A DNA stretch of 63,054 nt, filler included, from Licmophora abbreviata (lineage: Eukaryota), in the NCBI GenBank assembly GCA_900291995.1. It is 12 parts of 12 records of this genome, joined end to end, with 100 filler letters (N's around TTAATTAATTAA, not from the genome) between each part and the next. Parts side by side here need not be neighbours in the genome. Positions count along the whole stretch, not along the records: positions 33,611 to 36,610 come from OLMU01002115.1; 11 more parts are not named here. The stretch is one strand, 5' to 3'. The translations under genes were made by a program, and so were the position numbers. The first letter of the stretch is position 1; each line of letters begins with the position of its first letter. Shown here piece after piece: positions 6,077-40,809 of this stretch. Under the pieces are notes generated by a model. The model searched no databases. It saw nothing but the letters and a program-made list of their open reading frames with translations, and was not told where the DNA came from.

Positions 6077-6176
6077 NNNNNNNNNNNNNNNNNNNNNNNN
6101 NNNNNNNNNNNNNNNNNNNNTTAATTAATTAANNNNNNNNNNNNNNNNNNNNNNNNNNNNNNNNNNNNNNNNNNNN
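6077..6176. other. Artificial scaffold linker (N44-TTAATTAATTAA-N44); 11 copies in the window
   Basis: The identical six-frame-stop linker also starts at about 9665, 11337, 13715, 21308, 33511, 36611, 38021, 44895, 59103 and 60731. Confidence 0.97.
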
Positions 6177-32000: not shown

Positions 32001-33018
32001 CAACTCTTCCGGTAAATTTCTTATTCGTCACCAGTACGTAGGTACCAGAAAAGGAGCCAAGGGCGGCCGTGGATTCATCACCGAACTGAATCGCCAACGT
32101 CGAGCACAGATACTTCCCTTTGCGTTGCCAAGCAAAGAAAATAGACCATCCGGCAATGAGAAGGAGCCAGATGATGAGGAACGCGACACGTCGGAGGATG
32201 TTCGATCCCGGCTTTTTGGGGACTTTGATCTCGCTCACATGGTGCGCCGCAACTTGAAGCGAGTCCCACATGAATCCCCGTTTCGCCAAAGCAAATGCGA
32301 GTTCACTCGCCTGCGACACGATTCCCAGAGCTGCAAAGTTCAGAAACATATCGACTACACTGGTGCTTTGCATCATGAGGGTAAAGTTGGTCCAAAGGGC
32401 CAGCGCTCCGCCAGCGAATTTCAGGGTACAGGAAAGAATCCAATTTCCATAGGTCGCAGCTGGTGCCGTCTTGAGAATCTTCGAATTGTAGCCGTCATGG
32501 AACATGATAACACTCTTGATCATGTCCGACTCGACAGCCACGGCTAGCGGAAGGAGCAGAAACTGGGAGACCGACACTTCGGTGTTTACGCCTGGTGGGA
32601 TTGCCATCGGGTTGAATGAGCCAACTTCGATAATGTCGACGAGAATCAAGATGAAGAGCGAAATCTGTAACAAAAACATGATGATGGCGAAGATGAAAGT
32701 TCCACTCATAGGACGCGATGTGAGGACGAAACTATAGATGTCTTCCGTCAGCTCGGCAAACTGTTCGTCGTTGTCACTGTCGTCCTTCTTGTATCCTTTT
32801 TCATCTCCGGCATAGACAGCTTCCTCCTCGTCACGCTTACCATCAGATTTAGTTACCAGCGGATTGAGACCAACATCGTCCGCTTCGGCTTTTTTCACGG
32901 CTCTTACGGAATATTCAGGACGGTGAGATCCCTTCTTTTCTCGCGTGTCTTCTTCCAAGCCCACCGTGCAGCCATCATCGCCGCACGAGGAAGCCCAATT
33001 TGGGATGAAATTCTGCAT
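29001..33018 (-). CDS. Polytopic membrane protein with about 12 C-terminal EGF-like repeats
   Basis: An N-terminal multi-TM region is followed by repeated PC.NGG.C...C.C..GFGG..C units in ORFs 30034-33033, 29609-29986 and 29001-29591, joined by short introns. Confidence 0.8.
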
Positions 33019-33610
33019 TGAGTTCCAAATCACAACTTTTTACTGAATTTACACGAGCTGACCCGTTTGTCGCGACGCTTGATACGTGGTGTCGTTCCAA
33101 TTCAAGTTGAATTGGGTGAGGCGGGAAGGAGGCGACACGAGAGAGGGAGGAAGCAATGATAGGATACCAGTTTGTTCGGCGAAATCATGAAATCATCCAT
33201 TGTTGTAACAAAGCACGATCGAGAGTCAGCGCGCCGGCCATCTCTCGTCGCTCTCGGCACGCGCGGCGGCAATGACAATCAATACGATCTCTTGTTATGC
33301 ATTCGCTATACTGGTTTCGAAGGGCCGACAAGGGCGAACGGTCAACCGACGAGGACAGACGATCATTCCCGGCGCACACGAGAGCGAGCACTGGACGTTT
33401 CTTCATCGCGGATGTACTAGCAACCTTTGAATGAATCTGCACCTCTCTCGGCGGGGATTGCATGTCTGCTATCATACGGTATCATATCACGAATAAACCT
33501 AAAAATTAAANNNNNNNNNNNNNNNNNNNNNNNNNNNNNNNNNNNNNNNNNNNNTTAATTAATTAANNNNNNNNNNNNNNNNNNNNNNNNNNNNNNNNNN
33601 NNNNNNNNNN

Positions 33611-33821
33611 GACATGGAGTGCAGCAGCTGCTTCGTTCACGCTTCACGACGCCATCACGCTTCAGGGCAGCGTCCCAGAGCCGCGATACGAGCGCGTCGT
33701 AGGAGGACAATCCATCCGTGATGGACACGCGAGTGCAGGCTGTACGGCCTCGCGGCGTTTCAATCAAGAATGTGACATTCTCGTTCCTAGGAGAGGCGGG
33801 GGGAGCAAGAAACAGCGACAT
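33611..33821 (-). CDS. 5' fragment of a hypothetical protein (runs into gap)
   Basis: MSLFLAPPASPRNENVTFLIETPRGR... stays open into the gap. Confidence 0.35.
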
Positions 33822-34078
33822 GACGATGGAGAAGAATGAATGCAGGGTGAATGTGAAGCGAGGACAGTGGCTGAGACGCGACAAGGACGACGAATGGGTG
33901 GCTGCGATGACGCGAGTAGTGTTCGCCGCGTGACGTGCGCACGCGACCTTTCGTGATTGATTCATTCGGTCGAGAGAGCGATGATGGCGACACAACACGA
34001 TGGCCGTGTCCTTTGTTCCTTCAGCCTTTCTCGTCTTATTTCTGTTGCTCCCCCTTCCTCCAATTCCTCCTTATTAGC

Positions 34079-34666
34079 ATGAAAGGACCGAAGCAATTAA
34101 AGGTCGGCTCGAACGTGCCAAATCTGCCCTCTCATTTGGTGAATTCCGCGGGCGACGAAATTCCCCTCGTTCACGACACGCAGCCTACACTCATTTGCTT
34201 TCTTCGTCACTTGGCCTGACTTCCGTGACACGATCACGTGCAAGCTCTCTTACAGCACGTGCAAGAGCTGGAAGCGCATGATTGTAGACTCTTATTTGTC
34301 TCGTACAGTGATCCAAGCAAGCAACTGCATCGATTGTGGATTGAAGAGTGGATCAAGAACAATATCGCTGGAACTTCCGCTCTACTGCTGCTAGATCCGG
34401 ACAAGAGTGCGTATCAGTCCTGGGCTATCCCAAGTAGTACCGTCGCTGCCTGGGGACCGGCCAATGTGTGGTACTACATCAAGGCGATCATCTGTCGCGG
34501 CCGTCGCTCGATTGAAATACAAGGCGAAGCGGGGCAGCTGGGTGCCGACTTTGTACTAGCTCCGGGCGGAAGAGTGCTGTTGCAGTACTATTGTCGTAAC
34601 CCTACGGATCGAGTGACTGTAGAGAAGCTCCTGGAGGCTGTCAGATTGCACCAAAAAGAAAAGTAA
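34079..34666 (+). CDS. SELENOL: Selenoprotein L-like AhpC/TSA (thioredoxin-fold) protein with a UxxU motif, 195 aa
   Basis: One frame runs from ATG 34079 to TAA 34666 with in-frame TGAs at 34217 and 34226, reading CFLRHLA-U-L-P-U-HDHV. Downstream AhpC-like motifs are LLLDPDKSAYQSW, QLGADFVLAPGGRV and PTDRVTVEKLL. A candidate SECIS lies in the 3' UTR. Confidence 0.88.
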
Positions 34667-34700
34667 GGATTTCGTTACACCGTTATTGCAAAATAAATGT

Positions 34701-34789
34701 GGTTGGTGGAATGACAGCGCCGTGTCGGGCTACGTAGTATGCGAATGACAGCATACGCCTGCCCGCGTCCGCTTGAACAAACACCAGCC
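34701..34789 (+). promoter_or_regulatory. Candidate SECIS element
   Basis: Helix I is GGTTGGTG/CACCAGCC. The core is ATGAC (34711) with TGAA (34774), and helix II is AGCG/CGCT. Upper stems are CGGGC/GCCCG and GTATGC/GCATAC. Confidence 0.7.
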
Positions 34790-35069
34790 TCGTTTGCAAA
34801 GTTTTATCATTACTGATTTGAAGTTGTCAGTTCTATTCTAGATAGTTTTTTGACAAAGAAAGCTTGCCTTTTTAACCCTTGCATCGGTAACACATTCAAC
34901 ATGGAAACAAACGACGAATTTGCCTCCGTCCGAATAGAAAGAAATAATGAGAGTAATATGGAAACCAGGTTACGAAGGAAGATACACAACATTAAGTCCT
35001 TACTAGCTATCATCGCACTCCAAGCGACCGACACAAACGAAGTACGGAGTTGAAGGGCAAGCAGCAAGT

Positions 35070-37179
35070 TTAGGTCGAAGGGAGAATCATCTTTTCGGGT
35101 GACACAACTCCCCTGGTTCGGTTGCTCTTGGTCAGCATTCCGAACAGCTCTCTCAAGGCGATCTCAGATTCAAACATTGCCGAGGCGTTGTGTCCAGTGC
35201 CGGGAATTTCGAGGAGTTTATGGGTTGGTTCGCCGTAAAGATCCTCAAGGTATTGCATGTATTGATATCCTCGAGTTCGGCGGCAGGGTCCTTGCAACAT
35301 GGCTGGGCACCTCGTGTCCATCTAGAGACGACACGGAAGAGGGAGCGTCAGTCGAATCACTAGCACAATCAGAGCAAACGATTGCAATCCTACTAGCCAT
35401 AACGGATGAGTACTTACCTGGTTGCGGAAGCACGGCCACTCGTCCTCAGCATAGTTCTCCCTCTTCCAACAGCTTGCATCACACACAGGAAGTCCATCAT
35501 TACACGTGTCATTCTGTCCCACCAAGTACACAACGTGAAGCTTACGATAGACACGAAGCGCTCGCTCAACACCCAGAAAGCCATCGCGCAACGCGTATGG
35601 GATGTTTCGTCCGAGCTTGTCAGCAAAAGATCCTATCCCGTAAGGCCACCTGCGATGGGAGCAGTAATATTGATGTGAGCGGAGGACAAGATCACGACTC
35701 CAGACTGACACACGTTACAGGGGACCTCTTACCTGTTATACGTCCAGACGTAGCAAGGATGTTTCGTACCGGCAGTATAAGAATGAGGCCTCGACAGCTT
35801 TGAGTAGGGAGGAGAAGGGGTGCACTCTTTGCTGCAAGTACAGTTGCGGGTGTTGCACTCGCAGTCTCCACAATTGTACTCGAAGCGGCGATCGTCCAGA
35901 TAGGTGTAGGAGGACGGGTTGGCAATCACAAACTCCAAATCAACTTCCTCGTCGTAATCCCAGAGTGCCGCAAACACGCTCATGACAGCGTATCGTTGGA
36001 CCATTTGTCCTCCTGTTGAATACCGGTAGACAAAGAAAAGAAGTTAGAGGACGGACAAGCACTGCGCCTGTCACCGCGTCTTGCACGTACCGGCAGAATG
36101 TCCGACATACGAGATCTTTCGCATTTTCGGAAAGAGTCGTTTGTTGGTCAGGAGTCCTAGCATATGATCCAGCACAGTAAAGCTTGAAACCGTTGTACCA
36201 GACTTGCCGCAGCAATTCGGATCACTCTCCGCCCCGACTCTCCAGTCGCCCCACGGCTTCGAGGAATTCCAAAAGGCATCCCGTGGGTGCACCAGTTCAT
36301 CTTTCTCGTAGTTGAAATCTGGTGCAATCACAAGAATATCGTTAAAGTTACGATAGTTCTGTTTGAGCATGAGCTGCTTGAACGAGCAGAAGTAATCTTG
36401 GGCATCCCTCATAGCTCCGTGCTGGATGAACAGGGCCATAGTCTGGTTGCCCCCCGAGCGTAGCAGCTGCGATGAGTGGTAAGGGAAAGTAATATTGCCA
36501 TACATCTGCAGGCGATACACGCGGAGACAATTCTCATCGTACGTGACGCTAGGATCATCAGAGTTTAGAAACCCTTCTTCGATAGAATTCGTGACCTCGA
36601 TCGTCGACATNNNNNNNNNNNNNNNNNNNNNNNNNNNNNNNNNNNNNNNNNNNNTTAATTAATTAANNNNNNNNNNNNNNNNNNNNNNNNNNNNNNNNNN
36701 NNNNNNNNNNAATTCGTGACCTCGATCGTCGACATGCGACGCCGGGCACCAGCTCCAGCTAGATTGTCGCAGGCTGTCTGCCAGTCAATTCCTTGGCAGC
36801 GCTTGACGCGTTCCGCTGCCGCTGCAGCATGAGCTCGAATGGCAGCCTGTAATTTTTGCTCCTTCCGAATGGGCATCATGATGCGCCGATAGGCTACTGT
36901 GGATCCGGCATATACCAGCAAACCCACCGTAACACACAAGACGATGCTGAGGGTGATGTTGAGAGCATGGCGTTTCTTAGATCGGGTACTTTCCATGGCG
37001 TTGCGGAAGTTCTTGAAAGGCATGTTGAAAACATCGGGAATCTCGGTGTAGCCATTTTTCACCCGAGTCGTCGCGTTCAGTCCAGGTGTCACTCCACCCA
37101 CAAGAGAGCTCTTGCGACTGGGATATCCCGGGCCTCCACGGACCTCAACGGGACCGTCGGCTATTTCAAAGTCGTCCAT
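35070..37179 (-). CDS. Type II membrane alpha/beta-hydrolase (bacterial-like), multi-exon, spans a gap
   Basis: N-terminal TM, FIQHGAMR, nucleophile elbow GHSAG|GQMVQRYA split by an intron, VIANPSSY, YLVGQND and C-terminal IPGTGHNASAMF. Confidence 0.8.
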
Positions 37180-37585: not shown

Positions 37586-40500
37586 ATGATGGCGTCGAAT
37601 GAGAGCGACGAGATAAGGCAGCTTGAAATCAGCTCGCTCATGGGAAATGATGAAGCGGAATCGCCTCATTTCAGAGCAGTAATGCGACTTCAACCTCAAA
37701 CTGTCCGTGGCCAATCTTGCAGCCTAGACTTTACGTCTGTTCAAGGCAAATTGTATGACCGAGAGCATGAGAAGGCGCTCCTGTTTCGTTCCTATGAACG
37801 GTTGATCGATAACTCTGTCGATCGTGCGCGTGAACTGGTGATCATCTCAGGATACAGTGGGACCGGCAAGACAGCTCTAGCACATACGCTGCGCCTTCCT
37901 GCGTCTCAGAGGGGAGGGATGTTTTTGGCTGGAAAGTTCGATCAGTTGCGCTCCCCGAAACCCTTCGCAGCATTTTTACAAGCATTCACTCAATATGTCG
38001 TCATAACAGTCAGCCGAGGCNNNNNNNNNNNNNNNNNNNNNNNNNNNNNNNNNNNNNNNNNNNNTTAATTAATTAANNNNNNNNNNNNNNNNNNNNNNNN
38101 NNNNNNNNNNNNNNNNNNNNGGCTGTACAGCAAGCCAAGCTGCAAATTCAGCAGGCCGTTGGGTCGGAATGTCAGCTACTTACCGACATGATTCCTTCGC
38201 TGGAGCAAATCCTGGGAAAGCAAAGTGAAGGAGCACCGGTTCCACAAGGCCCAGAAGCACAGGAGCGCTTCAAGTTCGTCATTCGACTCTTTGTTCGATC
38301 CATCTGTCAGGCACGGGCGGGCGAACGGCAACCCATCGTACTCCTCCTGGACGATTTGCAGTGGGCGGATACGGGCTCTCTCAAGTTACTTGACGCCATT
38401 ATGACGGACCCGGAGAGTCAGGAAAATTTACTGCTAGTGGGGACATGTCGACACAATGAAGTCTCTATCCAGGACGAGCTAGCAGGTACACTTAGAGAGA
38501 TGGAAGATGGCGGCATCGCTATCTTCAACATCCTGGTCACGAATCTTAGCCGAGCGGCGGTCACCGACATGCTGTGCGATCTCCTGCGCATGTCCAGTGA
38601 AGACAGCAACTCTCTTATGGAGATCATCTACAAGCAGACTAAGGGGAACGTTGTCTTTGTAATGTACTTTCTTCGATCGTTGGTCGAAGAAGGTATGCTC
38701 CACCTGGATACCGAAACATCTCAATGGAAATGGAACGGAGCTACGATTGACGAAGGCAGTATGGGTGGAGACGTTGTATCTCTCGTGGGCCGGACGATTC
38801 GCCATCTTGGAGACGGGATACAGGAGGAACTCAAAATCGCGGCATGCCTTGGTGCTGAGTTTTCCAAGGACTTGTTGTGTCATTCTCTTTCCAGTGCAGC
38901 GGAGCCCGTGGACTCTCTTCTGACAACTACGGCTGAGCTTGGATTGATGCTCTATGATCCGAAATCTGATAACATCCGTTTTGTCCACGATCGAGTCCAG
39001 CAGGCAGCATACGCACTCATTCCAGAAGACAAACGTGGCTTGTTTCATCTTAATCTCGGAAAGACAATCTGGAAGAATATCCCGGCAGAGAAAGTAGACG
39101 AATGGATATTTGTCTTGGTGAGCCAGCTTAGCCGTGGTATTTCTTTGGTAAAGCGCCAGAAGGAAAAGTATCGAATGTCTGCGTTGTTCTTGAAAGCCGG
39201 TGAGAAGGCTGTTCTTTCGTCTGCATTTGCGACGTCGGCTACGTACTTTCAACTCGGCATCGACTTGCTTGGTGAAGAGTGTTGGCGTGAGGAATATTAC
39301 CTGAGCTTGGCCCTTTACGATGGTGCCGCTGAGGTCGCATATTGCAACGGCGATTTCGAAGAGGTAGATCGATGTATTGCACAAGTGTTGGAAAACGCTG
39401 ACTCATTTCGTGACAAGCTTCGCGCGTGCTCCACTCAGGTGTACGCCCTTGGAGCACGGGATCGGCTGGACGAGGCGATCGATGTTGCATTCGAGGTTCT
39501 TCGACTGCTCAGTGAACCTTTCCCTCCTACCGTCAGCACCGCGACGCTTGTGATGGAAGTTATGCGGACAAAATGGATTCTTCGAGGAAAGTCAGACGAA
39601 CTGATTTTGCGACTACCGCGAATGACCGATGCCGACAAAAGTGCTGCAATGAAGATGCTAAATCTTCTCTTTCTCCATGCTTACCAGGCGCGACCGGAAT
39701 TTGTACCGCTTGTGGCACTTCGTCTGGTACGATTGACGATGCGCTTCGGCTTGTCCCCGATTTCGTCCTGCGGATTCTCCATGTATGGCATGACATTGTG
39801 TGTATCTGGAGACCCAGAGCAAGGGTATCGGTACGGGCAGCTGGCCCTTAAGATACAGGAGCTGTGTGGCGCCCCCCAGTATGTACCTCGCCTATATGCG
39901 GCTGTTTTTGGCTGCATCCATCACTGGAGCAAGCCGCTTCGGGGTTGTCTGGACAAAATTCAGGAGTACTCGAAACTGGGGTTCTTGACGGGTGATATTG
40001 AGTATGGAACATTGGGGTTAAACGTTCATTGCCTGAGCTCTCTTGATGCGGGTCTTCCCTTAGTCGATGTGGAGCAGTGGCTAAGACACAACTGTACCGT
40101 CATGACCTCCTACAATCAAGACACTGAGTTATGGCTGGCGCGCATCGTCCTGCAGGGCGTTCTCAATCTGCGGGGACAAGAGGCGAACCCACTTGAGCTC
40201 TCTGGAGAAGTCCTCGACGAGTCCGAGGCCATCACCGAAATGGTTTCCAAGAGTAACATCACATTCCTTTGCTTCATTTATATTATGAAACTGTGGAATG
40301 CCTACGTTCACGGTGAATATGAGCAGGCTGAGAAGATGGCTGCCTTGTCACGCAACGTGGCTCAGGCCGTCTTCTGTTCGTTCGACGTAAGCGTGCAGTG
40401 TTTTCTCGATGGTATGACGTCGCTCGCCCTTGCCCAGCAGAATCATCGCAGCGCCGATATCAAGGTGGCTCGTAGCTGTCTGAAACGCATGACTCATTGG

Positions 40501-40809
40501 GCCAAGCACTGTCCCTCAAACTACCTTCATAAGCGTTACCTGATGGAGGCCGAGTTTGCCGTATTGCGAGGCAAGCATGACTTGGCAATGGAGAAGTTCA
40601 CTAGTGGTATTGTACTGGCCAAAGAGCAAGAGTTTGTGCATGAACAAGCTATTGGCCACGAGCGAATGGGATTGTACCTTCTACGACGGGGTGACACTGT
40701 GGCGGCCGAATCTGAGCTGCGCAAGGCGGTCGACGTCTATGAGGCTTGGGGCGCCGTGGGGAAAGTCGTCACAATGAGAGAGAAGCTGCCTTTTCTCGAC
40801 GGGCAGTAG
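37586..40809 (+). CDS. STAND-class AAA ATPase with TPR-like helical region (multi-sensor kinase ATPase type); spans a gap
   Basis: Walker A GYSGTGKT, GKFDQL, Walker B LLLDDLQWAD, TKGN, FVHDRVQQAAY and C-terminal YEAWGAVGKV. Confidence 0.85.

Follow-up and report, generated by a model that had tools for sequence, protein, structure and literature searches.

Can two TGA codons that interrupt one reading frame, three codons apart, both stand for selenocysteine (Sec, U) in a small algal redox protein? The question is raised by a locus in the window, by which we mean the whole stretch of DNA that was analysed (63,054 nucleotides, filler included). Two ORFs, 33935-34219 and 34238-34666, share a frame there, and just TGA CTT CCG TGA (34217-34228) lies between them. 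In our judgement the locus is very probably a genuine, functional gene for a protein with two Sec. With equally high confidence we describe the gene as intronless, and its product as a single-domain AhpC-TSA_2 (PRXL2/SelL-like) protein of a diatom-like stramenopile, with the motif U47-L-P-U50. The answer draws on the frame, the conserved TGAs, the selection on either side of them, the fold, the alignment with CxxC proteins and a conserved RNA element. The features within the frame are the following.

34079..34666, plus strand: intronless coding sequence of the putative 195-residue selenoprotein (from the frame, collinear full-length homologs, Pfam AhpC-TSA_2 and an AlphaFold pLDDT of 93).
34217..34219, plus strand: TGA 1, predicted Sec47, in the first Cys column of CxxC and directly before helix 48-58 (from translation, alignment and model).
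34226..34228, plus strand: TGA 2, predicted Sec50, in the second Cys column of CxxC (from translation and alignment).

When TGA is translated as U, positions 34079-34666 yield 195 residues followed by TAA (34664-34666), and the frame contains no stop besides the TGAs at 34217-34219 and 34226-34228. The two Sec codons correspond to U47 and U50 in the motif FLRHLA-U-LP-U-HDHV, and the peptide around them is HLA-U-LP-U-HDHVQALLQHVQELEAHDCR. A preliminary description of this DNA had reported two same-frame ORFs split by TGA-CTT-CCG-TGA alone, and a readthrough product of 195 residues with this motif; the sequence, the ORF list and the translation agree on both points. Further, the 145 residues on the C-terminal side of U50 contain no Met, and the conserved domain can therefore be obtained solely by readthrough of both TGAs.

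Two short contigs from sequencing runs overlap the locus. The first, of 406 nt and from a DNA run (X2), covers both TGAs with no difference and may share its source with the window itself. The second, of 276 nt and from run X5 (where the RNA type is a guess), covers 34460-34735. No joints are seen in the short contigs of these runs over the locus, and they are neutral as to expression. Elsewhere in the window, paired runs of 44 N with 12 readable bases between them occur at 11 sites (for example 6077-6176, 33511-33610 and 36611-36710). These are filler joints, and the one nearest to the gene is about 470 nt upstream.

What kind of protein does the frame encode? The Pfam profile AhpC-TSA_2 (PF13911; PRXL2 family) matches residues 60-172 over profile positions 5-112 of 114, at 30.3 bits with a gathering threshold of 27; the match to AhpC-TSA, at 24 bits, is below its threshold. 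An AlphaFold2 model built from a 31-row alignment has a pLDDT of 93.0 and a pTM of 0.89. In this model 36 residues precede strand 1 (37-41), which is followed by helix 1 (48-58) with Sec47 at its N-terminus. The order of strand and helix places U47 at the classical CxxC site of redox proteins with a thioredoxin fold. Structural matches found with Foldseek include BCP/PrxQ, ResA, human prostamide/PGF synthase and other peroxiredoxins, with E-values of about 1e-8 to 1e-7. The fold, as modelled, is thereby described as Prx/Trx-like.

At the level of sequence, the sole match among solved structures is a weak one to human PGFS (E 0.03), where C44 and C47 align with U47 and U50. In the 31-row alignment, 11 non-algal rows cover the motif, and in seven of these the U47/U50 columns read CxxC; the remaining four consist of one SxxC, two Cxx(V/E) and one misaligned row. 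The earlier proposal that the motif sits where AhpC/TSA-like proteins carry CxxC is thus in line with both the alignments and the PGFS cysteines.

Are the two TGAs conserved? A word-indexed search through 5.8 billion proteins returned 13 close homologs of the window protein, with 57-78% identity. It had been anticipated that gene callers would truncate or miss such a gene, and this is what is seen: ten of the 13 start 3' of the motif, and the three that are full-length (P0002, P0003 and P0005) all read LRHLA-W-LP-W. None of the 13 is predicted correctly, which is an annotation gap in a collection of this size. Metagenome contigs were scanned as well and yielded five such loci, which belong to two organisms: L001-L004 encode the same protein, and L005 is from a second species. 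The proteins of these sister species are 62-64% identical to that of the window, and TGA CTT CCG TGA is found at identical alignment columns in the L001-L004 organism and in L005. The Logan protein P0182 equals the translation of L003 at 194 of 196 residues, and both mismatches are W at the TGA codons. As these are the only mismatches, W in such database proteins stands for TGA. Conservation of TGA or Cys had been suggested as a check, and its outcome is that both TGAs are kept in all three species with DNA and that the Cys homologs have CxxC.

All three species have CTT CCG between the two TGAs (window 34220-34225, L003 2630-2635, L005 2624-2629), in spite of the saturation of synonymous sites elsewhere. 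Two codons are too few for significance, but the surroundings of the UGAs may be under constraint. No match to the TGA-CTT-CCG-TGA context was found in the viral contigs that were scanned.

If the two codons are decoded as Sec, what could direct this? Downstream of the gene, on the same strand, we find one element with the following parts.

34697..34792, plus strand: SECIS-like stem-loop in the 3' UTR (from folds, invariant blocks and compensatory changes).
34701-34708 paired with 34782-34789, plus strand: predicted helix I of this element (from the fold).
34711..34714, plus strand: AUGA, the 5' side of the putative SECIS-type core, within the invariant block GUGGAAUGACAGC (from the three-species comparison and the fold).
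34774..34776, plus strand: UGA (G.A partners), the 3' side of the core, within the invariant block GCUUGAACAAA (from the three-species comparison and the fold).

In the window the element lies 45 nt past the stop and 494 nt past the first UGA. Its blocks GTGGAATGACAGC and GCTTGAACAAA are invariant in the three species, with the second located 49-65 nt beyond the first, and the element that they mark begins 40-58 nt past the stop. Within 800 nt downstream, the two blocks hold the sole words of at least 9 nt that are common to the three species, and outside of them the three 3' UTRs cannot be aligned. On the other side of the gene, the 500 nt upstream contain no word of at least 8 nt that is common to all three.

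Folded separately, the three elements adopt the same shape: a lower helix, an internal loop with AUGA opposite UGA, above it a second helix starting with AGCG/CGCU or AGCA/UGCU, and then a long upper stem. A loop with AA to AAAA caps this stem. Of the 18 pairs in the consensus fold, six show a compensatory change. Judged from these folds, the layout is that of a eukaryotic SECIS, with a kink-turn core of tandem G.A pairs, and it is this core motif together with the conservation that suggests a SECIS function.

In two respects the element departs from what is usually searched for. The SECIS models of Rfam match nothing in the window stretches 33000-36500 and 34680-34810, nor in 3090-3210 of L005; even the narrowest searches, over 121-131 nt with E up to 10, were negative. 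Further, 22-29 nt separate AUGA from the unpaired A residues in the apical loop. The classical spacing used in SECIS searches is about 10-13 nt, and by this measure the element is non-canonical. Each of the genes has one conserved stem-loop of this kind with the AUGA/UGA core. That a SECIS-like element can be invisible to Rfam bears on how complete the surveys of algal selenoproteomes are.

Trained on the three elements, a covariance model matches the window element at 70 bits, this element being one of its training sequences, and it detects no second copy in the window, L003 or L005 beyond the training sequences. A weak match at 38153-38221 on the plus strand (12.4 bits, E 0.11), at the start of ORF 38188-40809, is probably due to chance. 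A bacterial-type or "redefinition" hairpin directly after the UGAs was considered as well and finds no support, as the z-scores in the three species are -0.34, -0.68 and +1.28 and no fold is shared.

Where does the protein belong? Selenoprotein L (SelL) of fish and aquatic invertebrates was reportedly described by Shchedrina et al. 2007. The available passages of Mariotti et al. 2012 and Jiang et al. 2012 (PMC3316567, PMC3473315) state that SelL has two Sec, two residues apart, that it uses one SECIS, and that it is present in fish and invertebrates. They agree with the background given in the preliminary description, where UxxU in a thioredoxin fold was taken as the mark of SelL. For algae, the accessible part of Jiang et al. 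2020 (PMC7539508) lists SELENOL among the Trx-like selenoprotein families. A literature search, the reach of which ended at running text, before figures and supplements, returned no text that describes a UxxU SelL in diatoms.

To find more distant relatives, we used a family profile that retained 143 positions, all 3' of the motif. Against 1.84 billion representatives it gave 329 matches at E <=0.001, and the best 150 of the 329 are considered here. Among the matches listed, many are 125-140 residues long and start just past the motif position. We read 31 of the longer matches, and two kinds are found among them. The first is short and has CxxC, as in P0028 from Chloroflexi, an "AhpC/TSA family protein". 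The second consists of two-domain, animal-type proteins of 280-380 residues, among them fish Cys forms with the NCBI names "uncharacterized" or "thioredoxin-like protein AAED1".

The link to SelL is found within this second kind. The match P0079 (E 1.1e-8) is in the same 90% cluster as KAK6997796.1, "selenoprotein L [Biomphalaria glabrata]". The animal-type proteins P0154 and P0269 carry LRHLS-W-LP-W-RDHI and LRHFA-W-DP-W-RDHI, respectively, and the match of P0154 to the Biomphalaria "selenoprotein L" extends across both domains (E 8e-38). A relatives search started from P0154 added one further relative. In BLASTP the window protein (P0001) is 30% identical to P0154 (E 2e-20) and 29% identical to a fish Cys form; to the Chloroflexi CxxC protein P0028 it is 34% identical over the full length (E 6e-34). 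We also observe that three gene models, namely that of the Biomphalaria "selenoprotein L" (P0169, KAK6997796.1), P0040 and P0052, omit exactly the stretch that bears the motif, as is explained by a gene predictor that avoids in-frame TGAs.

We built an unrooted maximum likelihood tree from 50 rows, hand-picked from about 190 family proteins with all other matches left out: 16 algal, 9 short CxxC, 12 truncated, 9 animal-type and 4 further eukaryote-like sequences. All algal sequences fall into a single clade (100/98) with a long branch, and those of animal type into another (98/94), which is joined to the eukaryote-like fourth group (87/86). Both the algal and the animal-type clade stand amid poorly resolved short forms. 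With the tree unrooted and its deep forks open, orthology between the algal clade and animal SelL is neither shown nor excluded. We consider it likely that the window protein belongs to the SelL-like/AhpC-TSA_2 family in a broad sense. The earlier characterisation as a "short, single-domain algal SelL" stands as far as the single domain, UxxU and the homology to SelL are concerned; a specific grouping with animal SelL is not seen.

A set of bacterial loci is relevant here as well. A scan of prokaryotes, with one genome per species, gave 242 relatives, and the best 80 of the 242 were read (L006-L085). Among these best 80, nearly all are from Chloroflexota MAGs, mostly Anaerolineae, and the first motif codon is TGA in 77. 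At the second position, 74 of the 80 have TGC or TGT, two have TGA (L060 and L067) and two have TCG; one locus is CxxC, and in two loci the pattern matched the wrong place. The context of the motif is RHLG-TGA-[LIV]-P-Cys-REH. Since the first position is TGA in 77 of the best 80, this site is probably a recurrent Sec site of the family, and the same TGA explains the truncated database entries, many of which start with "MAQLR". Read from their codons, the bacterial relatives would mostly be UxxC selenoproteins, and together they look like a widespread, mostly unannotated selenoprotein family.

These loci bear on the first alternative to be weighed, namely that we deal with a two-Sec protein that is not SelL in the strict sense. 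It would then be the diatom branch of a bacterial-type AhpC/TSA family with UxxC, its second Sec would have been gained independently, and the gene would perhaps be of bacterial origin and later have been given a eukaryotic SECIS in its 3' UTR. It may even be the same as AhpC_b of Thalassiosira oceanica, which the passages available from Jiang et al. 2020 (PMC7539508) describe as a diatom selenoprotein with an AhpC_TSA domain, UxxC/CxxC and only prokaryotic homologs in the databases. We regard this as possible but rather doubtful. The window protein is indeed closer to P0028 than to P0154, the algal clade lies apart while the animal-type clade groups with the other eukaryote-like sequences, and the best 80 bacterial loci provide 74 cases of UxxC and two of UxxU. 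However, the deep forks of the unrooted tree leave room for a common Sec-containing ancestor with animal SelL, and the algal motif has its flanks, LRHL(A/S)-U-x-P-U-xDH(I/V), in common with the animal-type P0154 and P0269.

A more far-reaching version makes the diatom-like clade a lineage of UxxU diselenide oxidoreductases in its own right, derived from the bacterial UxxC family and possibly acquired by gene transfer. This would include the gain of a second Sec and of a eukaryotic-type SECIS with a long upper stem that standard models miss. We consider such an independent lineage unlikely, and mention it for what it would entail: SECIS-dependent surveys of algal selenoproteomes may systematically overlook genes of this kind, and the signal peptide present in some species would place a diselenide centre in the secretory/plastid pathway.

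Next in order is the view that the TGAs specify one of the standard amino acids, namely Trp, Cys or Arg, through an altered nuclear code or programmed readthrough. Some gene callers do print W at both positions, and Sec is what we infer. However, of 26 long ORFs checked in the window, 9 end with TGA, 11 with TAG and 6 with TAA, and the standard code leaves the long ORFs open, so there is no general reassignment of TGA. Further, the two positions are those of a redox CxxC, where W or R would be non-functional, and a conserved SECIS-type element follows the gene. A standard amino acid at these sites is therefore very improbable.

Could the locus instead be a pseudogene, or a chance pairing of two ORFs, with the TGAs as inactivating mutations? 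A standard reading does yield two short ORFs. Against this, the TGA pair is kept in three species with DNA and presumably in three more, and the homologous loci, at 62-64% protein identity, are not recent copies. Among the three species with DNA, pS is 0.58-0.82, i.e. saturated, and pN is 0.18-0.29, with similar values 5' of TGA 1 (43-46 codons) and 3' of TGA 2 (145 codons). These values point to purifying selection on both sides of the TGAs, and low pN with saturated pS on either side of conserved TGAs excludes a pseudogene or a chance junction; we give this idea next to no credence.

Hardly more credible is a short intron that removes the TGA stretch, or a start of translation downstream of it, as the models of relatives that skip the motif region (P0040, P0052 and P0169) might suggest: these models result from the predictor's avoidance of TGA, no Met is available 3' of U50, and FLRHLA-x-LP-x-HDHV aligns without a gap to FLRHLGC(L/V/I)PCR(E/D)H(V/I) of the Cys homologs, so that removal of an intron would delete the active site. 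In all, a pseudogene, an intron, a downstream start and a reassigned code are rejected for the reasons given above.

The beginning of the gene is less certain than its active site. In L003 (2402-2485) and L005 (about 2405-2491) an in-frame upstream Met adds a leader that resembles a signal peptide, MQRPFLLCYLVLTLLISSASS... in L003 and MQTPLLLLSYLVLPLLLLNAGFASS... in L005, and P0005 has an upstream leader as well. In the window there is no in-frame ATG upstream of 34079. It is uncertain whether ATG 34079 is the true start, since the sister species have an upstream Met and a signal peptide and the window does not. A leader-like ORF is observed in another frame of the window (33981-34082, plus strand, MMATQHDGRVLCSFSLSRLISVAPP...), whose TGA overlaps ATG 34079 as ATGA. 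This ORF could be a uORF, or the result of an indel or of a missed small intron.

The surroundings of the gene are eukaryotic in kind. Neighbouring ORFs carry the domains TAFII28, XPG_N and LRR-kinase, and the best named relatives of the XPG-like neighbour are from a Bacillariaceae MAG, Triparma, Fragilariopsis, Cyclostephanos and oomycetes. Together the domains and these relatives make "diatom-like stramenopile" a reasonable name for the host, consistent with the earlier label "diatom-like". A search for tRNA genes found none within the window. Diatoms as a group have tRNA-Sec and 16-44 selenoprotein genes, according to the passages available from Lobanov et al. 2007 (PMC2375036) and Jiang et al. 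2020 (PMC7539508). In addition, the source label of the homolog P0014 is mmetsp, a collection of marine protist transcriptomes, which implies that a relative is transcribed somewhere.

Returning to the reading that we prefer, a functional gene with two Sec, we infer Sec insertion, a diselenide and the substrate of the protein. The single SECIS-type stem-loop, 45 nt past the stop and about 490 nt past the UGAs, would recruit the Sec-insertion machinery, and both UGAs would be decoded as Sec, as described for SelL. Sec47, at the N-terminus of helix 1, would be the nucleophile that attacks, and Sec50 the residue that resolves. As a thiol/selenol oxidoreductase, the protein would then switch this pair between a diselenide and a two-selenol state.

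Natural proteins with two Sec in one redox motif are rare. To our knowledge, fish SelL, which forms a diselenide, is the sole protein of this type that has been studied biochemically. A small, single-domain and intronless UxxU protein would be a simpler model for the chemistry of diselenide redox reactions, and an algal UxxU gene would ease the study of how one SECIS serves two UGAs that are three codons apart. In the databases, truncation at a TGA affects most of the bacterial relatives, too.

How does the algal protein compare with what is known? PRXL2B (human prostamide/PGF synthase; PDB 9us9 and 9usa) shares with it the Pfam family AhpC-TSA_2 and a CxxC that aligns with U47/U50, and it is a structural match with TM 0.65/0.76 at 22% identity. 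However, PRXL2B is a Cys protein and a weak match by sequence (E 0.03), and it is unlikely that the prostamide/PGF synthase function carries over to the alga.

AhpC_b, compared by description only, is alike in being a diatom selenoprotein with an AhpC_TSA domain, a CxxC-type motif and prokaryotic homologs, as far as the accessible passages of its description go; it differs, on the same basis, in that UxxC is reported for it and the window protein has UxxU.

The Chloroflexota proteins, i.e. those with UxxC (L007-L085) and the CxxC protein P0028, are alike in having a single domain of about 175-185 residues and the motif RHL(G/A)-U-(L/I/V)-P-(C/U)-xxH, with 34% identity over the full length in the case of P0028. 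They differ in that Cys is mostly kept at the second position, where the algal proteins would have Sec, and the tree sets the algal clade apart from them. A further difference concerns decoding. In bacteria the SECIS has to lie inside the coding sequence; the algal genes carry their SECIS-like element in the 3' UTR, and no hairpin is conserved behind their UGAs.

A further close resemblance is to SelL of fish and aquatic invertebrates. On our reading, both have UxxU at the CxxC position of a Prx/Trx-like fold and two UGAs three codons apart that one 3' UTR element would serve, and the homology is detectable (P0079 cluster, E 1.1e-8; P0154, E 2e-20). In contrast to the algal protein, animal SelL in the strict sense has a helical N-terminal domain before the Prx-like domain, and the animal-type proteins P0154, P0269, P0166 and P0169 have about 130-230 extra N-terminal residues. 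Further, the algal sequences form a separate, long-branched clade, and the upper stem of their SECIS-like element is unusually long. The protein of the window is SelL-like in motif and fold and probably in decoding, and differs by its single domain, its own clade and its non-canonical SECIS-like element; with it, the gene adds to a known kind, the SelL-like UxxU proteins.
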